Origin: Parcubacteria group bacterium Gr01-1014_13
GTDB taxonomy: Bacteria; Patescibacteriota; Patescibacteriia; Magasanikbacterales; GWA2-37-8
Direction: 5' to 3'
Length of the DNA stretch: 64,000 bases
NCBI GenBank assembly: GCA_007376295.1
Contig: VMGB01000001.1
Location: 182,643-246,642 of the forward strand
This document shows, piece by piece, positions 13,697-48,420 of this stretch; within the stretch, counting starts at the first letter, position 1, and each line of letters opens with the position of its first letter. The position numbers and the translations under genes are program-made. The notes beneath the pieces were generated by a model, which worked only from the letters and a program-made list of their open reading frames with translations, made no database searches and was not told the DNA's origin.

Positions 13697-13733
13697 AAAA
13701 AGCCTTGACTTTTCAAGGTTTTTTGTGTAAAGT
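13697..13733 (+). promoter_or_regulatory. Terminator hairpin after the helicase gene, with the atp operon -35 element embedded in it
   Basis: Hairpin aaaagccttga/tcaaggtttt followed by T's. TTGACT (13705-13710), 17-nt spacer, TAAAGT (13728-13733). Confidence 0.5.
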
Positions 13734-13746
13734 AGTGGCGCAATTT

Positions 13747-14010
13747 ATGCAGGAGAACCAACCCAAAAAAACTACTAGCCGCGAATATCATCTATTTGCT
13801 TTCAAAATGCTTGGTGATTTTGGCGCTTCAATTGCCGCGCCGGTTGTCATATTTGTGCTCATTGGGCAATACTTGGATGATAAATACGCCAAATCACCCC
13901 TTTTCACTATTCTAGGATTTGTGTTAGCCGCACTGTTGTCCGCAAAGATTATTTACAAAAAAGCAAAGATATACGGGGAAGAGTACAAGAGAATGAACGA
14001 GAATAAATAA
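13747..14010 (+). CDS. AtpZ/AtpI-like small membrane protein of the ATP synthase operon. The track start at 13705 is the TTG of the -35 box.
   Basis: Two TM helices (ASIAAPVVIFVLIGQYL and LFTILGFVLAALLSAKIIY), located directly upstream of atpB. Confidence 0.5.
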   Translation: MQENQPKKTTSREYHLFAFKMLGDFGASIAAPVVIFVLIGQYLDDKYAKSPLFTILGFVLAALLSAKIIYKKAKIYGEEYKRMNENK

Positions 14011-18549: not shown

Positions 18550-19926
<1,377 letters not shown>

Positions 19927-19969
19927 AAACCCACCAAAGTCTGGTAGGCAAAGTAGGGAACATGGACTG

Positions 19970-20272
19970 TTAATTTGAGCTGTTTTCTGAGTATGAATCT
20001 TCGAGCCGAACTGCCTTTACGTGAATAGTATGGTACACAATCTTTCGAGGAAGTGAGGGCATAATTTTACGAATAATTTTATATGCATCCTTATCGATAA
20101 TCTTTGTTTCCATCACCGTACGAATTTTTGCCTGGTCTAATTGAGAAAGAGCTAAAATTTTCTCGTTTAAACCGTTGCCTTTAATAGTCGTTCTAAAATC
20201 AATACTTTCGATAAATCTACCCTTTTTATCAAATGTATCAACACCAACAAGCCATACCTTGACTTCGGACAT
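19970..20272 (-). CDS. Hypothetical 100-aa protein on the opposite strand, between atpD and atpC. Start MSEVKVW chosen because it has a strong SD (AAAGGAGATAAAATG).
   Basis: Open frame with an AAGGAG Shine-Dalgarno. No recognisable family. It occupies a 387-bp gap that is normally less than 30 bp in atp operons. Confidence 0.5.
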   Translation of the reverse strand: MSEVKVWLVGVDTFDKKGRFIESIDFRTTIKGNGLNEKILALSQLDQAKIRTVMETKIIDKDAYKIIRKIMPSLPRKIVYHTIHVKAVRLEDSYSENSSN

Positions 20273-20313
20273 TTTATCTCCTTTGGGTAAAAAATTAACA
20301 CAAATAAGCATAT

Positions 20314-20742
20314 ATGTCAACACTTAAATTTAAAATCGTAACACCGGAAAAAGTAATTTACGAAAACGAAATTCTTCAAGTTACCATTCCTACTATGAGC
20401 GGTGAAATTACGATTCTTCCCAATCATATTCCTTTGGTTTCAGTGTTAAAAGCGGGGGAGATGAGAATAAAAGATAAAGACGGTGAACAGAATCTGGCAG
20501 TTTCCGGAGGATTTTTGGAAATACGCGGCAACAACGAAATTGTAATTCTGGCTGATCATGCCGAAAGAGCAATAGATATCGACACTGCTAAGGCTGAAGA
20601 AGCCAAGCAGAGAGCCGAAGAACAAATGAAAAATCTTAAAAACGTTCAGGATGTTGATTATGCCAGACTTCAAGCTGTTATTGATAGGGAACTCAACAAA
20701 ATAAAAATTGCTCGAAAATATAAAAACTTACCAAATAAATAA
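20314..20742 (+). CDS. atpC: F0F1 ATP synthase subunit epsilon
   Basis: LKFKIVTPEKVIYENEILQVTIPTMSGEITILPNHIPLVSVLKAGEMRI, the epsilon beta-sandwich plus C-terminal helices. Confidence 0.85.
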   Translation: MSTLKFKIVTPEKVIYENEILQVTIPTMSGEITILPNHIPLVSVLKAGEMRIKDKDGEQNLAVSGGFLEIRGNNEIVILADHAERAIDIDTAKAEEAKQRAEEQMKNLKNVQDVDYARLQAVIDRELNKIKIARKYKNLPNK

Positions 20743-20747
20743 AAAAG

Positions 20748-20776
20748 ATGGAGACCGTTCAACGGTCTCCATTTAG
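20748..20776. terminator. Bidirectional terminator. Serves atpC on + with a weak T-run and the minus-strand small gene with a good T-run.
   Basis: 10-bp stem atggagaccg/cggtctccat with loop ttcaa. A-run upstream and T-rich sequence downstream. Confidence 0.55.
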
Positions 20777-20791
20777 TTAAAGAACAGAAAT

Positions 20792-21088
20792 TTATTCTGG
20801 TTTGCGCTTTGCTAGCTTAGCGGCTTTTTTCCAAACAGATTTTTTGGTACCGTGATCATTTTCAGCGTAATCACTAACATCGTTCTTAACCGGGAAAACA
20901 CCGGGCCTATAGAGAACCACAGTCCAATGCTTAGGTTTGTGTCCATACTCTTTACGCGGTTCAAACACGCGCACTGTTGATGGATGGCTTATAGAAAGCC
21001 AATGTTCGGGAAGTTTTGACCATCTATATTTTTGCACCCAGACGAAGTGGACACCGTCTACTACTTTGGGATTTCTTCTTGTGGCCAT
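20792..21088 (-). CDS. Small hypothetical protein, paralogue 1 (HWLSISHP...VRVFEP family, unassigned)
   Basis: Shares VHFVWV...HWLSISHP..VRVFEP...LY(K/R)PGVF with the adjacent gene. The track start is a TTG; internal ATG (MATRR) taken instead. Confidence 0.5.
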   Translation of the reverse strand: MATRRNPKVVDGVHFVWVQKYRWSKLPEHWLSISHPSTVRVFEPRKEYGHKPKHWTVVLYRPGVFPVKNDVSDYAENDHGTKKSVWKKAAKLAKRKPE

Positions 21089-21096
21089 AACACCGC

Positions 21097-21405
21097 TCAA
21101 CTCACCGGACGCTTTGCCCAGTTAACGGCCTCTCGCCAAGCAATTCTTTCAGTGCCTAGGTACATTTCCGCATCATACTTGTCGTCGCTGCTAGGCGGAA
21201 TGAATACCCCGGGTTTATAAAGGATCGTCATCCACTCACCATCTTCTTTCGTAAGCGGATGTGGTTCAAACACACGGACTACTTGCGGATGACTAATAGA
21301 AAGCCAGTGCCCCCGAAGATTTGATCCTTCATACTGATCCACCCATACAAAGTGCACATCCAAAACGATTTTGGGTTTTCTCTCGTTATCATTTTTGTTT
21401 TGCAT
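21097..21405 (-). CDS. Small hypothetical protein, paralogue 2
   Basis: About 45% identical over the core to paralogue 1. GGAGG Shine-Dalgarno 5 nt upstream of ATG (MQNKNDNE...). Confidence 0.5.
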   Translation of the reverse strand: MQNKNDNERKPKIVLDVHFVWVDQYEGSNLRGHWLSISHPQVVRVFEPHPLTKEDGEWMTILYKPGVFIPPSSDDKYDAEMYLGTERIAWREAVNWAKRPVS

Positions 21406-21554
21406 GATATCCTCCATTCCTCAAGGGAATTTGTTGAGCGTAGTTAATCACAAAACAACTATGTCAGTCAACTTGACATTTTAAAAAATATATATTGCCT
21501 TCAATTTTTGGTTTTGATATAATCTTTGTAGTATTTATCTTCTAACCTCTACGT

Positions 21555-21786: not shown

Positions 21787-22944
21787 ATGATTAAAAAAAT
21801 AAAAATTAAAAAATCACATAAAACTATTCAAAAAGATTTTGAATTAGATTTAGAAAAAACAACAGTTATTACTGGGAAAAATAACTCTGGGAAAACAAAC
21901 TTTATTCAAGCGGTAAATGCTAAAAAAGACGTGGAATTTACTAATGCAGAGTTCTTGGATGAAAAAGATAAATTAATAATTCCAATTACTATTTATATAG
22001 CTGCAGAAAATATAAACCCTTCTGATAATGAATCAAACTCTTCGGCTAAAAAAAGTAGTTTGATACAAAATTTAGCAGAATTATTTTCTAATTTAGGAAT
22101 TAAATTTATTCTTGAAGAACAACCTAAAATTATTCAGGAAATAAAAACTTTAATAGATAAGGCGGATGAAAATTTAAAGGAATTCAGCGGAAAAAATGAT
22201 CATGGTATTAAAATAAAATTTAATGAAGGAGAATTGGACCCCGCTACCATAGCACAAGCCTTAATTAAAAAAATTATTGGAGACGAAAACGGAGAGGAGG
22301 TAGATCTAGACGATTTAGGACAAGGCACTCAAAGAATAATTGTTGCTTCAATTTTGAAAGCGTATGTGGATATTTTGATCGAAAGAAACAAACATTCTCA
22401 AGAACCAATACTAATTCTTTTTGAAGAACCCGAAATTTATTTACACCCTGAATTGAAAAGGACTCTTAACATAACATTAAAAAAGATAGCTGAGCAAGAT
22501 AATCATCAGGTTATAATTACGACCCACGATCCATACTTTGCTTATACTAATTTAAATGGTGAAAATAGCGTTGTTTACTCTTTTTTAAAAACTGCAGAGT
22601 ACACAGAAAAAACAGAGCCAGGTATTATATTTGGAATTGAAGATGAATTACTTCATATTCATCTTTTTGAAAAAATGATACAAATATTAAAGAAAAGTGG
22701 GAAGGTTAAATCTTTTATATTAGACCCTGGTAAAGAATTAGACATCTATATAAAGGGTTATTGCGGAAAAGAATTAAGAGCAAATACATGGTATAAAGAA
22801 AAAAAAGGCATAGAAGATAAGCTTTCTCTACCTTTACATATCAGGCATTTAATCCACCATCCTGGAGGTAAAGATAAATTCACTGATATTGATTTAGAAA
22901 AATCAATAGAAATATTAAATTTAATTCTAAGCAAAGCATCTTAA
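21787..22944 (+). CDS. AAA/ABC-type ATPase of the OLD/AAA_15-AAA_21 family (385 aa)
   Basis: Walker A VITGKNNSGKTNFIQAV, ABC-like signature region DLGQGTQR, and Walker B/D-loop ILILFEEPEIYLHPELKRTL...VIITTHDP. The C-terminal 130 aa has no obvious match; it may be a degenerate Toprim-like region (GIEDE...LDPGKELD). Confidence 0.8.
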   Translation: MIKKIKIKKSHKTIQKDFELDLEKTTVITGKNNSGKTNFIQAVNAKKDVEFTNAEFLDEKDKLIIPITIYIAAENINPSDNESNSSAKKSSLIQNLAELFSNLGIKFILEEQPKIIQEIKTLIDKADENLKEFSGKNDHGIKIKFNEGELDPATIAQALIKKIIGDENGEEVDLDDLGQGTQRIIVASILKAYVDILIERNKHSQEPILILFEEPEIYLHPELKRTLNITLKKIAEQDNHQVIITTHDPYFAYTNLNGENSVVYSFLKTAEYTEKTEPGIIFGIEDELLHIHLFEKMIQILKKSGKVKSFILDPGKELDIYIKGYCGKELRANTWYKEKKGIEDKLSLPLHIRHLIHHPGGKDKFTDIDLEKSIEILNLILSKAS

Positions 22945-22970
22945 TGATGATCTAATTTTTTGTATTAAAT

Positions 22971-24476
22971 ATGGATTTTATTAGTAAAACAACTTATTTA
23001 GAGTATTTATCTTGCGGTAAAAATGCCTGGCTTAGATGTTATAAACCGGAATTAAAATCATTATTTAAATTATCTGATTTTGATAAAAGCCTAGTAGATA
23101 AAGGAAACTTAGTGGAAGATTGGGCGCGCAAACTTTTTCCAGACGGCGTTTTAATTACCGAATCAGACGAAGAAGCTTTACGAATTACCAAACAGCATAT
23201 CGCAGATAAAACACACGTTATTTTTCAATCAAAATTCATTCATGACAAATTTTTGGCAAAAAACGACGTGCTTGAGTATGATAAATTTAATGATTGTTGG
23301 AATTTATACGAAATTAAAGGCACTAATACTTTAGACGAAAATGTAAAAGAAATAGATCATATAGAAGATGCCACTTTTCAAACTATTATTCTAAAAGCCG
23401 TAGGAATTAAAGTTGGTAAAGTATTCATTATCCACCTAAACAAAGAATACGTCAGAGAAGAAGAAATAAACGTGGAGGAGCTTTTTATTAAGGATGACAT
23501 AACTGAGGAAGTTAAAAATAGGGAAGAAAATACAAAAGAAAAAATGCAAAAAGCAGCCGAATGTTTATTTCAACAAAATGAACAAGCTTTGGTCTGTCAA
23601 TGTGTCTATTCAGGCCGAAGCGCGCACTGTGCAACATTTAATTACTCCTATCCCAACATTCCAGAATACTCGGTTCATGATTTATCTAGAATAGGGAATA
23701 GTAAAAAAAAGTTAGAATCTTTGGTTGATTCACAAATTTTTGATATAAATGAAATTCCTGAAGATTTTGAATTAACACCCAATCAGCAAAATCAAGTTTA
23801 TGTACACAAAACTCAAAAACCAATAGTAGATTTAGTGGCTATAAAAAAAGAGCTTAAATCGCTTGCATATCCTCTGTATTTTTTGGATTATGAAACATAC
23901 CCGCCGGCCATACCTTTGTTTAAGGGTTTTAAGCCATACCAACAAATACCATTTCAATTTTCTTTACATATAATAGATGATGAAGATAGCGAACCGATCC
24001 ACTTGGAATATTTGCACGAAAATGCTACGGATCCATCTTTGTCTATTATACTCAAATTAAAAGAAATGATTGGTCCAAATGGCAATATAATTACCTGGAA
24101 TAAAAGATTTGAAAAAGGAATAAATACACAATTAGCTGAAAGAAACCCGGAATATGCAGATTTTATTGAAGATATAAATAGTAGAATTTATGATTTAATG
24201 GAAATATTCCAAAAACAATTTTATGTTCATCCTGGTTTTAAAGGAAAAGTTTCCATAAAAAAAGTTTTACCTATTTTAGTTCCTAAATTAAGCTATAAAG
24301 AACTAGAAATAAAAGAGGGCGGATCTGCTATGGAAGCATGGTACGAGATGGTATTTGGATCTGGCTCACAAGCAGATAAAAATAAAATAGCTGACGACCT
24401 GCGAAAATATTGCGGTTTAGATACTTATGCAATGTATGCAATTTGGAAAGAATTAATGAAAATTGTATGGCAATGA
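22971..24476 (+). CDS. Cas4/RecB-like PD-(D/E)xK Fe-S nuclease N-domain fused to a DUF2779 domain (predicted RNaseH-like exonuclease)
   Basis: N-terminal Cys-containing region (LSCGKNAWLRCY), D...EIK motif (NDVLEYD...YEIKG), Cys cluster CQCVYSGRSAHC, and DUF2779 core YFLDYETYPPAIPLFKGFKPYQQIPFQFSLH. Confidence 0.65.
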   Translation: MDFISKTTYLEYLSCGKNAWLRCYKPELKSLFKLSDFDKSLVDKGNLVEDWARKLFPDGVLITESDEEALRITKQHIADKTHVIFQSKFIHDKFLAKNDVLEYDKFNDCWNLYEIKGTNTLDENVKEIDHIEDATFQTIILKAVGIKVGKVFIIHLNKEYVREEEINVEELFIKDDITEEVKNREENTKEKMQKAAECLFQQNEQALVCQCVYSGRSAHCATFNYSYPNIPEYSVHDLSRIGNSKKKLESLVDSQIFDINEIPEDFELTPNQQNQVYVHKTQKPIVDLVAIKKELKSLAYPLYFLDYETYPPAIPLFKGFKPYQQIPFQFSLHIIDDEDSEPIHLEYLHENATDPSLSIILKLKEMIGPNGNIITWNKRFEKGINTQLAERNPEYADFIEDINSRIYDLMEIFQKQFYVHPGFKGKVSIKKVLPILVPKLSYKELEIKEGGSAMEAWYEMVFGSGSQADKNKIADDLRKYCGLDTYAMYAIWKELMKIVWQ

Positions 24477-46142: not shown

Positions 46143-46886
46143 CTAACCACCCTTCAACATCTTTAGCGAACCGTTCGCTTCGGGTAGAGCCAGCTCGCGA
46201 TACGGATCATCAGACGGATCTTTTGCCGTATTAAGCTGATGCTGACTAATTGTAGTGCTAATTTTTTTCGCCTCTCTATATAATAGTTGTCGGCGTTCTT
46301 CTAGCCACTCACAAAATTTTTCATTCATTTTTCCTGATGTTTGCAGATGATCTAGGATATCAAACAGGTTGCAGCCATGAGCTTTTTGAAGCACTGGACA
46401 GATGAAGCTGCTATTTAGACGGCCGACACCAGCTGGCTTCTCGTCATTTTTTTCAGCTGTAATTCTTTGAAAAATACCACAGCTATTGCAAAAAGTGCCT
46501 ATATTTCCTGCACCAACTAGAAATGCTCCTGTCACTGAATGATCTTTCATTTCACTGATTTCGTGGAGCACTAGAAAATTTTGTTTACAATAAATACAGA
46601 CACTTTCAGCTCTACTCGTTTGCAACCAGCCTAGCATGTGCGCCCGCGGCGCTACGTTCTTTTCCAAAACAGTAAACCCCAACTGTCGCAAACGTTGGAC
46701 AACTGTTTGCCCGCCTTCCGGTCCTCCGCCGGTACCGAGCAAAAGAGCCTCTTTTGCTGCCAGTCGTCTGATTATCGTAGTTTCTAGCAAGAGACTGTAT
46801 TTGATTTCTGCGAGTTTACTGGCCAAGATAAAACCGCCACCCCCAGCGAGTAACACCCAGACTAAACATACAATGAGATAGAACAT
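46143..46886 (-). CDS. Hypothetical membrane-anchored Cys/His-rich protein
   Basis: N-terminal TM helix, Gly-rich GTGGGPEGG, and CIYCKQ...H...CNSCG...HGC clusters. Strong GGGAGG Shine-Dalgarno. Own promoter and terminator. Confidence 0.55.
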   Translation of the reverse strand: MFYLIVCLVWVLLAGGGGFILASKLAEIKYSLLLETTIIRRLAAKEALLLGTGGGPEGGQTVVQRLRQLGFTVLEKNVAPRAHMLGWLQTSRAESVCIYCKQNFLVLHEISEMKDHSVTGAFLVGAGNIGTFCNSCGIFQRITAEKNDEKPAGVGRLNSSFICPVLQKAHGCNLFDILDHLQTSGKMNEKFCEWLEERRQLLYREAKKISTTISQHQLNTAKDPSDDPYRELALPEANGSLKMLKGG

Positions 46887-46988
46887 GATGTCCTCCCTTT
46901 TTTGTCTCCCAAACTTAGCAAAATTTTAACGCTTTGTCAAGATAAAAAAAGGGCTCCTATATGTTTTCACATGTAAAAGCCCATTGAC

Positions 46989-47792
46989 TTACTGATCCAT
47001 CCCGCACTCATTCCAGTTGACCGGCGCGAATCCCTGTCCTGGGTACCTATCAAGGATATTACTCATGGCCGTGGCAATCTCTTCATCCCACCGTTCTCCA
47101 GTTGTTAACAGGAGAAAGGTATTTTCGGTCGGGCCGAATGAGACACTATTACGATTCATGATACACTCGTCCTCACCCGGCGGATACGCTTCCGGACAGG
47201 TGTGATCTCCGGGCTCGTTCCCGCTACCACAATAATGGTGATGCAGTCCCAATGTATGACCAAACTCATGGGCAAAGATTGTTTCGTAAACCAGATAGAC
47301 TTTGTGTCCGCCACCATAGGAAGTACCAGTACCTCCTAGAGTAGCCACGATATCATGACCAGGTAGCTGGTCGGCATCCATACCTGGCTGGTATTCCAAA
47401 AATGTGAAACTCCAACCCGGAAATTGCAGTTCCGCTAGGCGCTTGAGAGTGGCGAAATGTTCGGCTTCGTTTGTCCATGGCGGGTTGTAAAGTACCGGGT
47501 TTTCGTAGCGAACGTAGACGTTTACTTCGTGCTCATGACGACCGCTGAGATAGGCCCTGGACCACGTATTCTTACGTTTGAGCATCCAATCGGCCCACTC
47601 TGGCAGCATGCCAATTTTTGCTTGATAGGCCGCCATTTCAGCTTCATAGCCCAGCAAAATCTCTTCGTCTTCGGAGGTGCCAACATCGTTTGGCCCTGCA
47701 TCGGCGACCGAATCGTCGCTCTCCGTATCGCTATGGCAAGCAGCAAAAGCAAAAATGAACAAAGCAAACATCAGACAAGCCTTGAATTTCAT
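46989..47792 (-). CDS. Lipoprotein zinc metalloprotease of the metzincin type
   Basis: Lipobox LFIFAFAAC, the HExxHxxGxxH motif (HEFGHTLGLHH), and a downstream Met-turn candidate (ECIMN). AGGAGG Shine-Dalgarno. Confidence 0.7.
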   Translation of the reverse strand: MKFKACLMFALFIFAFAACHSDTESDDSVADAGPNDVGTSEDEEILLGYEAEMAAYQAKIGMLPEWADWMLKRKNTWSRAYLSGRHEHEVNVYVRYENPVLYNPPWTNEAEHFATLKRLAELQFPGWSFTFLEYQPGMDADQLPGHDIVATLGGTGTSYGGGHKVYLVYETIFAHEFGHTLGLHHHYCGSGNEPGDHTCPEAYPPGEDECIMNRNSVSFGPTENTFLLLTTGERWDEEIATAMSNILDRYPGQGFAPVNWNECGMDQ

Positions 47793-47916
47793 GAGTTTCC
47801 TCCTGTTAAAGTTGATTGCAAGCTACCATATTTTAGTGGTTTTGTCAAGGTTAAAAGTTTAAAAAAGCCCTCGTACGTTTACACATACAAGGGCCCATCA
47901 AAACCAACAAAATTTG

Positions 47917-48420
47917 TTAAATCACTTGCGCCAGAGTCAAAGCTCTGTGCTCTGTCTGCTGAAAAATTATGACTGCGTCTTCCGGATTCAAAAACCGATC
48001 AAACCGGTAACGACAGAAACATCGTCTCGAGCCCCTTACTCTGGCATAAGCAACGCAGATATCATTATCTGTGTTTAGCCATCTGGAATCTTCATCCAAA
48101 GCAAAAACTGCGGAATACTTTTCAATCTCCTCTGGATAGTGTCTGGCAAACTGGACAAGCTCACCGATATTCCCAAGGATATAGCCTTCGGCCACAAGAT
48201 CGCGCGCAAACTTTTCGATCCCTTTCCAACACAGGCACGGCGCCAATCTGGGAAGCATTATTCCGCTATTACCCCCGGCGCAATTAAATGTTTCAAAAGG
48301 AATATCCAGAGAAATATTGTAAAGATTTTCTTCGCCTACCGCCTTACGGGCCAATTCCCTTAAGCTACAGGTACTATCCAACACAGTTGGAAAAACCTGG
48401 CTGATTTTCGTTTCGCTCAT
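47917..48420 (-). CDS. Hypothetical protein (167 aa, Cys-rich, no family recognised)
   Basis: AAAGGAGG Shine-Dalgarno. Bounded by promoter and terminator modules like its neighbours. Confidence 0.5.
   Translation of the reverse strand: MSETKISQVFPTVLDSTCSLRELARKAVGEENLYNISLDIPFETFNCAGGNSGIMLPRLAPCLCWKGIEKFARDLVAEGYILGNIGELVQFARHYPEEIEKYSAVFALDEDSRWLNTDNDICVAYARVRGSRRCFCRYRFDRFLNPEDAVIIFQQTEHRALTLAQVI

Follow-up and report, generated by a model that had tools for sequence, protein, structure and literature searches.

The stretch of DNA analysed in this study (the window; 64,000 nt) derives from Parcubacteria group bacterium Gr01-1014_13 and carries on its plus strand a complete F-ATPase operon, in the order AtpZ-like gene, atpB, E, F, H, A, G, D and C. 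Few bacterial gene clusters are as conserved and as tightly packed as the F-ATPase operon, and the epsilon subunit, encoded by atpC, controls ATP hydrolysis versus synthesis. The AtpZ-like accessory gene (13705-14010), identified by its Pfam match to PF09527, occupies the usual 5' end of the operon. The genes atpD (F1 beta subunit; 18559-19926, plus strand; Pfam PF00006/PF02874/PF22919, ATP-synt_ab E 1e-73) and atpC (20314-20742, plus strand; Pfam PF02823/PF00401, ATP-synt_DE_N E 2e-26) are separated by exactly 387 nt (19927-20313), and the remaining junctions of the operon are short. On the minus strand of this gap lies an ORF of 100 aa (19970-20272, including the stop codon), with its ATG at 20272, its stop at 19970-19972 and the protein N-terminus MSEVKVWLVGVDTFDKKGRF.

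A previous sequence-only reading of this DNA had pointed out the 387-bp gap, the 100-aa minus-strand ORF and an AAGGAG Shine-Dalgarno (SD) sequence, all of which were confirmed from the sequence, the ORF calls and Pfam. Its statement that atpD and atpC normally lie less than 30 bp apart is roughly right: the median spacing in 77 other genomes was 24 nt, with 48 junctions of 30 nt or less and 6 of at least 200 nt. In those of the larger gaps that were inspected, the ORFs were on the same strand as the operon and never on the opposite one. The spacing survey (77 loci) and these same-strand ORFs together indicate that the observation was correct and that the arrangement is unusual. The GenBank entry for the identical protein (G01um101413_208, hypothetical protein) is 113 aa long and starts at an ATG at 20311, which lacks an SD and lies upstream of the predicted -10 element and transcription start. 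Based on the family alignment, the position of the SD and the predicted promoter, we favour the 100-aa start at 20272.

A new orphan family between atpD and atpC

Sequence searches with the single ORF, and an exhaustive HMMER scan of 1.84 billion representatives with a two-sequence profile, returned only its own cluster. Family members were therefore reached via synteny, by scanning metagenomes with an AtpC alignment, comparing the junctions and confirming candidates with profiles. Among close relatives, with AtpD 94-100% identical, some had a tight junction and the others a gap of 363-396 nt with a minus-strand ORF. The filled junctions measured 363-428 nt and held a minus-strand ORF of 88-103 aa preceded by an AGGAGG SD. 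In total, 10 further loci from related Parcubacteria/Magasanikbacteria assemblies were found to carry a homologue at the same junction and in the same orientation as the window. Several of the loci stem from groundwater of the Hainich wells and of Rifle-type aquifers. A six-sequence profile search retrieved nine database proteins (P0003-P0011), all from opposite-strand ORFs at the atpD-atpC junction; one family member comes from Candidatus Magasanikbacteria GCA_001783215.1. P0005 and P0006 stand in the database at 73 aa because their ORFs, of ~93-95 aa, were called too short. The final 11-sequence profile, searched against 5.8 billion proteins, gave no additional members, and the family thus closes at about 11 known members.

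The members fall into three allele types, A (the window), B and C, with 15-30% identity between types. Type-B ORFs are ~20% identical to the window protein, yet can be aligned with it end to end, and hhalign comparison of types A and B gave a probability of 95% (E 2e-8, 88 ungapped columns); type C (L082) matched type B weakly, with E 0.002 over 41 columns. These results establish that the proteins form a new orphan family. Its known members number about 11, lie without exception on the opposite strand at the atpD-atpC junction, and come from a narrow Parcubacteria/Magasanikbacteria clade of ultra-small (CPR) bacteria. Neither a gene at this junction nor the junction family was described in the literature searched; the family is a genuine, previously undescribed one with a fixed antisense address inside the ATP synthase operon. 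The earlier reading had treated the insert as a one-off, and had named as evidence against its interpretation the finding of the same gene at the same place in relatives under annotation as a known atp accessory protein. In fact, the insert belongs to a positionally fixed, fast-diverging gene family (11 loci); the same gene does occupy the same place in relatives, but as an unannotated orphan.

The ORF is the sole frame open in both the window and its closest ORF-bearing relative, the JGI contig L001, which shares the layout atpD / opposite-strand ORF / atpC. Host-like (positive) codon usage was found in the ORF frame only, with a score resembling those of the other small genes of the window. 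The L001 protein (P0002) is 75% identical to that of the window, of equal length and without indels over 100 codons. Between these two loci, dN/dS was 0.31 for the ORF, 0.015 for atpD and 0.10 for atpC, and close pairs within allele types gave 0.13-0.33. By these sequence measures, the junction ORF genuinely codes for protein and is subject to purifying selection. That it is instead a chance ORF or a decaying remnant in a non-coding spacer, in keeping with its lack of known domains and with the substitutions against L001 by codon position (16/13/25), whose position-3 bias is non-significant when taken alone (p = 0.11), is scarcely credible; it is effectively refuted by the 11 independent assemblies whose homologous ORFs are intact, keep the SD, promoter and terminator and show purifying selection. 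The GC content of the inserted unit (hereafter the cassette) is 35.3%, against 38.2% for the window, and its codon score lies inside the host range, so that a recent foreign origin is not evident.

Predicted expression signals of the cassette and the start of atpC

The promoter, SD and terminator described here are predictions from consensus and conservation, and the signals of this phylum have not been mapped experimentally. Read on the ORF strand, all 11 loci share one layout: GTTGACAT, a spacer of 16-17 nt (often ending TG-N), TAnnnT (TATACT in the best cases), 14-23 nt containing AGGAGG, the ATG and the ORF, and then, after 15-30 nt, a GC-rich hairpin and a T-run. This unit occupies every nucleotide between atpD and atpC. 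In the window, the predicted -35 element TTGACA (20315-20320, minus strand) is the reverse complement of atpC codons 1-3 (A-TGTCAA-CA) and is perfect in 11/11 loci; the predicted extended -10 element TG-T-TAATTT (20292-20300, minus strand) follows, with TAnnnT found 16-17 nt from the -35 in every locus. The L001 promoter, TTGACA-17-TATGTT with TG, scores 10/12 and is the joint best promoter-like site on its contig. TCA encodes AtpC Ser2 in all 11 loci, although it accounts for only 17% of the Ser codons in these genes and synonymous changes occur at other conserved Ser positions, which argues that the constraint on the -35 acts on DNA. The sequence-only reading had proposed looking for an atpC promoter within 20273-20313; the promoter predicted there faces the opposite strand and would serve the ORF.

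The SD of the window ORF, AAGGAG (20278-20283, minus strand), lies 5 nt before the ATG. AGGAGG-type SD sequences precede 11/11 junction ORFs, compared with 4/52 long ORFs of the window, 0/9 genes of the atp operon and 3/28 long ORFs of relatives. The SD of the cassette is thus foreign in style, atypical for a host that rarely uses SD sequences, and adds a case of an SD-led gene standing out in a lineage that barely uses SD-led initiation. The 16S anti-SD motif is missing in about half of Parcubacteria (PMC9297842); no rRNA gene lies within the window. In 7 of the 11 cassettes, a short palindrome, CTCCT-N4-AGGAG, has the SD as its 3' arm, with the 5' arm next to the -10 or overlapping it. Examples between the -10 and the SD are TATACTCCTTTCTAGGAGG in L092, CCTCCTTTTTAGGAGG in L113 and CCCTAGCTCTTAGGG in L120, the last of which covaries (CCCTA...TAGGG); the type-A allele of the window has no such palindrome. 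The palindrome may act as an operator or fold into a hairpin, either one that sequesters the SD or one in the atp-sense leader of atpC.

At the other end of the cassette, the terminator scan placed an intrinsic-terminator hairpin of the minus-strand gene at 19929-19949 (minus strand). Its U-tract UUUUUAUUUU (19919-19928, minus strand) is the complement of the last codon of atpD, the TAA stop and the following A-run, and a T-run follows the hairpin in 11/11 loci. The window hairpin folds at -12 kcal/mol on the minus strand, compared with -6.1 on the plus strand. In an alignment of 10 loci, pairing holds in 94.9% of hairpin cells, while controls with the partner shifted by 1-3 columns reach 30-47%; compensatory changes occur in 3/8 pairs, and 13 G.U cells would be C.A mismatches if read on the atp strand.

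Comparison with empty junctions revealed how the cassette meets atpC. In relatives that are at least as close (L087, L002, L088, L091 and L097), the atpD stop and the atpC start are 1-11 nt apart. The empty site reads ...GTA AAA TAA T ATG CTT AAA TTT... and AtpC starts M-LKFKIV (L087, L088, L090/91, L097 and L002), whereas the filled site reads ATG TCA ACA CTT AAA TTT, giving MST-LKFKIV. This start codon and the two extra N-terminal codons (MST-) are exclusive to cassette-bearing loci. TAA-T-ATG empty junctions were found in relatives with AtpD 89-100% identical; in L087, AtpC is 87% identical to that of the window and the available AtpD residues (231-455) are 100% identical, and L088, L090/91, L097 and L002 are more distant than L087. 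The comparison of empty and filled sites shows that the ancestral junction was tight and that the cassette is an insertion, in line with that part of the earlier reading's proposal of an insertion that split the operon. As close relatives keep the tight ancestral TAA-T-ATG junction, the insertion now supplies the start codon of atpC, and the difference between filled and empty starts implies that the cassette brought or created this codon together with the two extra ones. As judged from these junctions, the 1-nt coupling of atpC to atpD is removed by the cassette.

A transposon-like event was considered and rejected: the lone flanking direct repeat is an imperfect, A-rich 17-mer (76%) that is not evident in L001 and was not accepted as a target-site duplication, and the cassette has no terminal inverted repeats.

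The terminator scan found no terminator-like site on the atp strand between atpD and atpC, and no positionally conserved atp-strand promoter was found before atpC, whether inside the ORF or at 20273-20313, so that a promoter of atpC's own in these regions was rejected. The simplest account is therefore that atpC is expressed by read-through. The predicted cassette transcript runs from ~20285 to ~19920 without overlapping the atpC start, so any interference would act by polymerase occupancy or collision, or by processing of the leader duplex, and not by masking of the start codon. Judging from the arrangement of these signals, the convergent cassette promoter probably interferes with epsilon expression.

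Turnover of junction alleles

Pairwise identity ranged from 15 to 75% for the ORF, from 59 to 94% for AtpC and from 82 to 100% for AtpD, the last across the 11 filled loci. Identities of the ORF and AtpC were uncorrelated (Spearman 0.05, n = 36): L083 and L084 share 94% identity in AtpC against 38% in the ORF, and the window and L115 share 88% against 20%. Nucleotide identity between the window and L115 passes from 87% to 41-46% and back to 84%, with the shifts exactly at the cassette borders. For this pair, dS was higher in the ORF (1.74) than in the flanks (0.65-0.84); between the window and L001 it was lower (0.47, against 0.83-0.89 in the flanks).

A neighbour-joining tree of atpD+atpC was bootstrapped 200 times, with some sequences partial and with 11 filled loci known. 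The filled loci were monophyletic in 0/200 bootstraps. The empty L002 grouped with the filled L092 and L113 (99%), and L085, whose junction holds a 56-nt hairpin only, grouped with the filled L116 (82%). L001 grouped with the type-B locus L115 (75%), despite sharing type A with the window. These results show that the cassette alleles (types A, B and C) are uncoupled from their flanks. The nested empty sites L002, L085 and L087 carry the ancestral M-L/I-KF start of AtpC and not MST-, which makes simple deletion an unlikely source of them.

From these patterns we infer, as the simplest account, that lineages exchange whole junction alleles, with the conserved atpD and atpC genes as the sites of homologous recombination. 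A single ancient insertion followed by strictly vertical inheritance, with very fast divergence in place, several independent losses and no recombinational exchange, would fit the identical location, orientation and regulatory layout of all loci and the fact that the alleles are all homologous or plausibly so. It is nevertheless rather improbable, since simple deletion would not recreate the ancestral AtpC start of the nested empty sites, the dS of the cassette is above that of the flanks in one pair and below it in another, and in the flank tree L001 joins the type-B L115 in spite of the type A that it shares with the window. A donor, phage or plasmid copy of the cassette was not found, and a phage origin was rejected, as there were no matches in IMG/VR or among GenBank phages (INPHARED).

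For this clade, the gaps between atp genes are hot spots of insertion. The atpD-atpC gaps of the ORF-less relatives L085, L089, L095, L096, L100, L103, L106, L108 and L109 measure 33-165 nt, and L111 and L114 have atpG-atpD gaps of 144-161 nt. Such ORF-less atp junctions often hold palindromic MITE/REP-like repeats, of the form TGTCATTC[CT]GA...GGATGACA or as AAAGGCC/GGCCTTT arrays. L002, the closest relative in the genome collection, has no atpD-atpC cassette and instead has ~420 extra nt between atpA and atpG (L002 2572-2990), with a same-strand orphan ORF of ~137-148 aa that has no Pfam match; this is a different, lineage-specific insertion.

The encoded protein, its possible roles and known systems

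The family proteins are 88-103 aa long, with GRAVY values of -0.41 to +0.01, a pI range of 5.3-9.6 and no transmembrane-like stretch. The AlphaFold2 model built from the 11-sequence alignment (pLDDT 67) has the order beta(3-14)-beta(20-31)-alpha(34-47)-alpha(61-70)-beta(82-95), with the conserved C-terminal motif [YF]xT[LI][RH]V as its third strand. Conserved positions are mostly hydrophobic (W7, F14, F20, L35, L42, S43, T82 and V85), and no invariant polar residue of catalytic look was found across the allele types. Pfam and NCBIfam gave no match for any of the 11 members, PADLOC and PHROGs profiles gave none with E < 0.1, and no significant fold match or relative outside the family was detected. 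Rfam had no family in the junction region or the whole window. The hydrophobic nature of the conserved positions, the variable pI and the lack of a catalytic-looking invariant polar residue suggest, together with the model, a small binding protein with a changeable surface.

We consider it reasonably likely that the gap represents an autonomous, convergently oriented one-gene accessory cassette, moron-like or minimal-mobile-element-like, that has become interlocked with atpC. Its parts would be, in order, a sigma-70-type promoter with the -35 taken from the atpC start, the extended -10, the strong SD, the 100-codon ORF and the intrinsic terminator. Alleles, and the presence or absence of the cassette, would pass between lineages by homologous recombination via atpD and atpC, in the manner of minimal mobile elements. 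The protein would be expressed separately from the atp operon, through its own strong promoter and SD. It may be small and soluble, of beta-beta-alpha-alpha-beta order, with a binding role, a hydrophobic core that is conserved and a surface that changes rapidly, and would most likely be an accessory or conflict-type factor and not a core part of the ATP synthase. The loss of translational coupling between atpC and atpD would be a side effect, or one that has been co-opted. Transcription of atpC would depend on read-through over ~390 nt antisense to the cassette and into an oppositely firing promoter, and since the read-through meets this promoter, cassette and epsilon expression would be expected to antagonise each other transcriptionally. 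The strict confinement to one junction could reflect a functional tie to the ATP synthase.

The sequence-only reading had also offered a cis-antisense regulatory arrangement. A cassette that served chiefly as a dedicated cis-regulator of epsilon, throttling atpC relative to atpD by convergent transcription or promoter occupancy with the protein as a secondary feature, would account for the DNA-level constraint that makes the -35 part of the atpC start in 11/11 loci, where RNA polymerase would cover the first codons of atpC. The strictly conserved position, the lack of a detected separate atpC promoter and a terminator that limits antisense transcription to the atpC leader, sparing atpD, point the same way. 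We regard this as unlikely, although it deserves some weight. The ORF is open in 11/11 loci with dN/dS of 0.13-0.33 and retains a strong SD in an SD-poor genome, which indicates that the protein itself is under selection; antisense regulation is therefore plausible but probably not the whole story. In addition, the very close relatives L087 and L002 manage without the cassette, and the predicted transcript misses the initiation region of atpC, so that masking of the start codon at the RNA level is unlikely.

The protein might instead be a lineage-specific accessory or inhibitory subunit of the ATP synthase, comparable to the epsilon C-terminal domain, zeta, AtpTheta or IF1 and encoded beside the genes of its partners. 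Every known member is linked to the atp operon and the protein is small and soluble, but this proposal is very doubtful: the gene lies on the opposite strand with its own predicted promoter in place of co-transcription, its distribution among close relatives is patchy, and its allele types differ to 15-30% identity against the far higher values of AtpD and AtpC. Furthermore, no sequence or fold likeness to known atp accessory proteins was found, and a genuine accessory gene (the AtpZ-like PF09527 gene) is already present at the 5' end of the operon. It is a long shot that the cassette is a dedicated, swappable control module for epsilon, in which a promoter built from the atpC start gates synthesis and the protein acts on the ATP synthase or on the energy machinery of a partner organism; if so, it would be a new class of ATP-synthase regulator, spread by using the conserved genes of the enzyme as homology arms.

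Small regulators and accessory genes of the ATP synthase include AtpI/AtpZ, the epsilon C-terminal domain, the zeta subunit, AtpTheta and IF1. The cassette resembles these in its small size and physical association with atp genes; it differs in lacking sequence or fold similarity, in its opposite strand and patchy occurrence, and in its extreme divergence, and the profiles for F-ATPase accessory proteins (AtpI PF03899, AtpZ PF09527, epsilon, and zeta DUF1476) matched none of the 11 members. Convergent or antisense units can interfere with an operon by transcriptional interference, as in excludon-type arrangements. Here, too, a strong predicted cassette promoter opposes incoming atp transcription, and the atpC leader in any read-through mRNA would be fully complementary to the cassette mRNA; unlike in those arrangements, the antisense transcript is predicted to be short, to end before atpD and to encode a selected protein. 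Type I toxin-antitoxin or cis-antisense sRNA loci, with a short hydrophobic toxin of <60 aa and an overlapping antisense RNA, do not fit the length and GRAVY values given above, and no Rfam family was matched.

A phage moron is an independent promoter-gene-terminator unit inserted between adjacent genes (PMC2920897). Like a moron, the cassette lies between genes that are adjacent in relatives (1-11 nt in empty sites versus 363-428 nt in filled ones), has its own predicted promoter (TTGACA-17-TAnnnT, 11/11) and factor-independent terminator, and is variably present at a site that is a hot spot with different insertions in other relatives. Unlike a moron, it shows no deviant composition, its SD usage alone being atypical; it resides in the chromosomal, essential atpBEFHAGDC operon and not in a phage or prophage, is anti-parallel to its host operon and provides the start codon of atpC. 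The minimal mobile elements of Neisseria (Saunders & Snyder 2002) are described in PMC3787668 as variable regions which lie between particular conserved genes and are exchanged by homologous recombination. The cassette is similar in that the space between atpD and atpC is taken up in the closest relatives by one of three allele classes, by palindromic repeats or by nothing, in that no transposase, integrase or terminal repeats are present, the 387 nt holding only the ORF and its signals, and in the phylogenetic uncoupling of cassette and flanks with sharp drops of identity at the borders. It differs in that both flanks are cistrons of the same operon with a usual spacing of 1 nt, which places the element within a unit of transcription. 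Natural transformation and recombination are putative in these CPR bacteria, where the incongruence, the border drops and the dS contrasts lend indirect support to a transfer through the flanks by homologous recombination. By analogy, the structure is closest to a phage moron and the population behaviour closest to the Neisseria elements.

This clade tolerates a strongly signalled gene firing head-on into the beta-epsilon junction and depends on the cassette for the start of atpC, and the junction alleles turn over far faster than the neighbouring genes. If exchange by recombination is correct, accessory genes could park, safe from deletion, beside essential and ultra-conserved genes that double as portable homology arms. 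If the cassette regulates epsilon, it would offer a testable handle on epsilon tuning in CPR bacteria.

Other features of the window were also recorded. Immediately downstream of atpC, two tandem paralogous orphans of 102 and 106 aa (20792-21100 and 21097-21417, minus strand; ~46-51% identical) share the motif VHFVWV...WLSISHP..VRVFEP, have no Pfam, PHROG or PADLOC match, and have copies beside atpC in L001, L082 and L087. As they and the junction ORF adjoin atpC, this gene has minus-strand orphan genes on both sides. Kinship of the junction ORF with this pair was rejected, since tblastn with the ORF hit no copy of the pair in related loci and the sequences were dissimilar on inspection. Between atpC and the pair, an 11-bp GC-rich hairpin flanked by an A-run and a T-run (20748-20772) is conserved in L001 (440-467) and looks like a bidirectional terminator common to atpC (plus strand) and the convergent orphan at 20792-21100 (minus strand). 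Just past the operon, 21787-24476 (plus strand) encodes an AAA_15/AAA_21 (OLD/AbiEii-like) ATPase followed by a DUF2779 protein, a defence-like pair; because this region differs from L002, the 3' side of the operon borders on variable DNA. The only other strong SD sequences of the window (GGGAGGA, AGGAGGA and AAGGAGG) belong to three adjacent minus-strand genes at 46143-48420 (46143-46886, 46989-47792 and 47917-48420). These have low codon-usage scores, the middle gene has weak metallopeptidase (reprolysin/met-zincin) matches, and the block was probably acquired horizontally.
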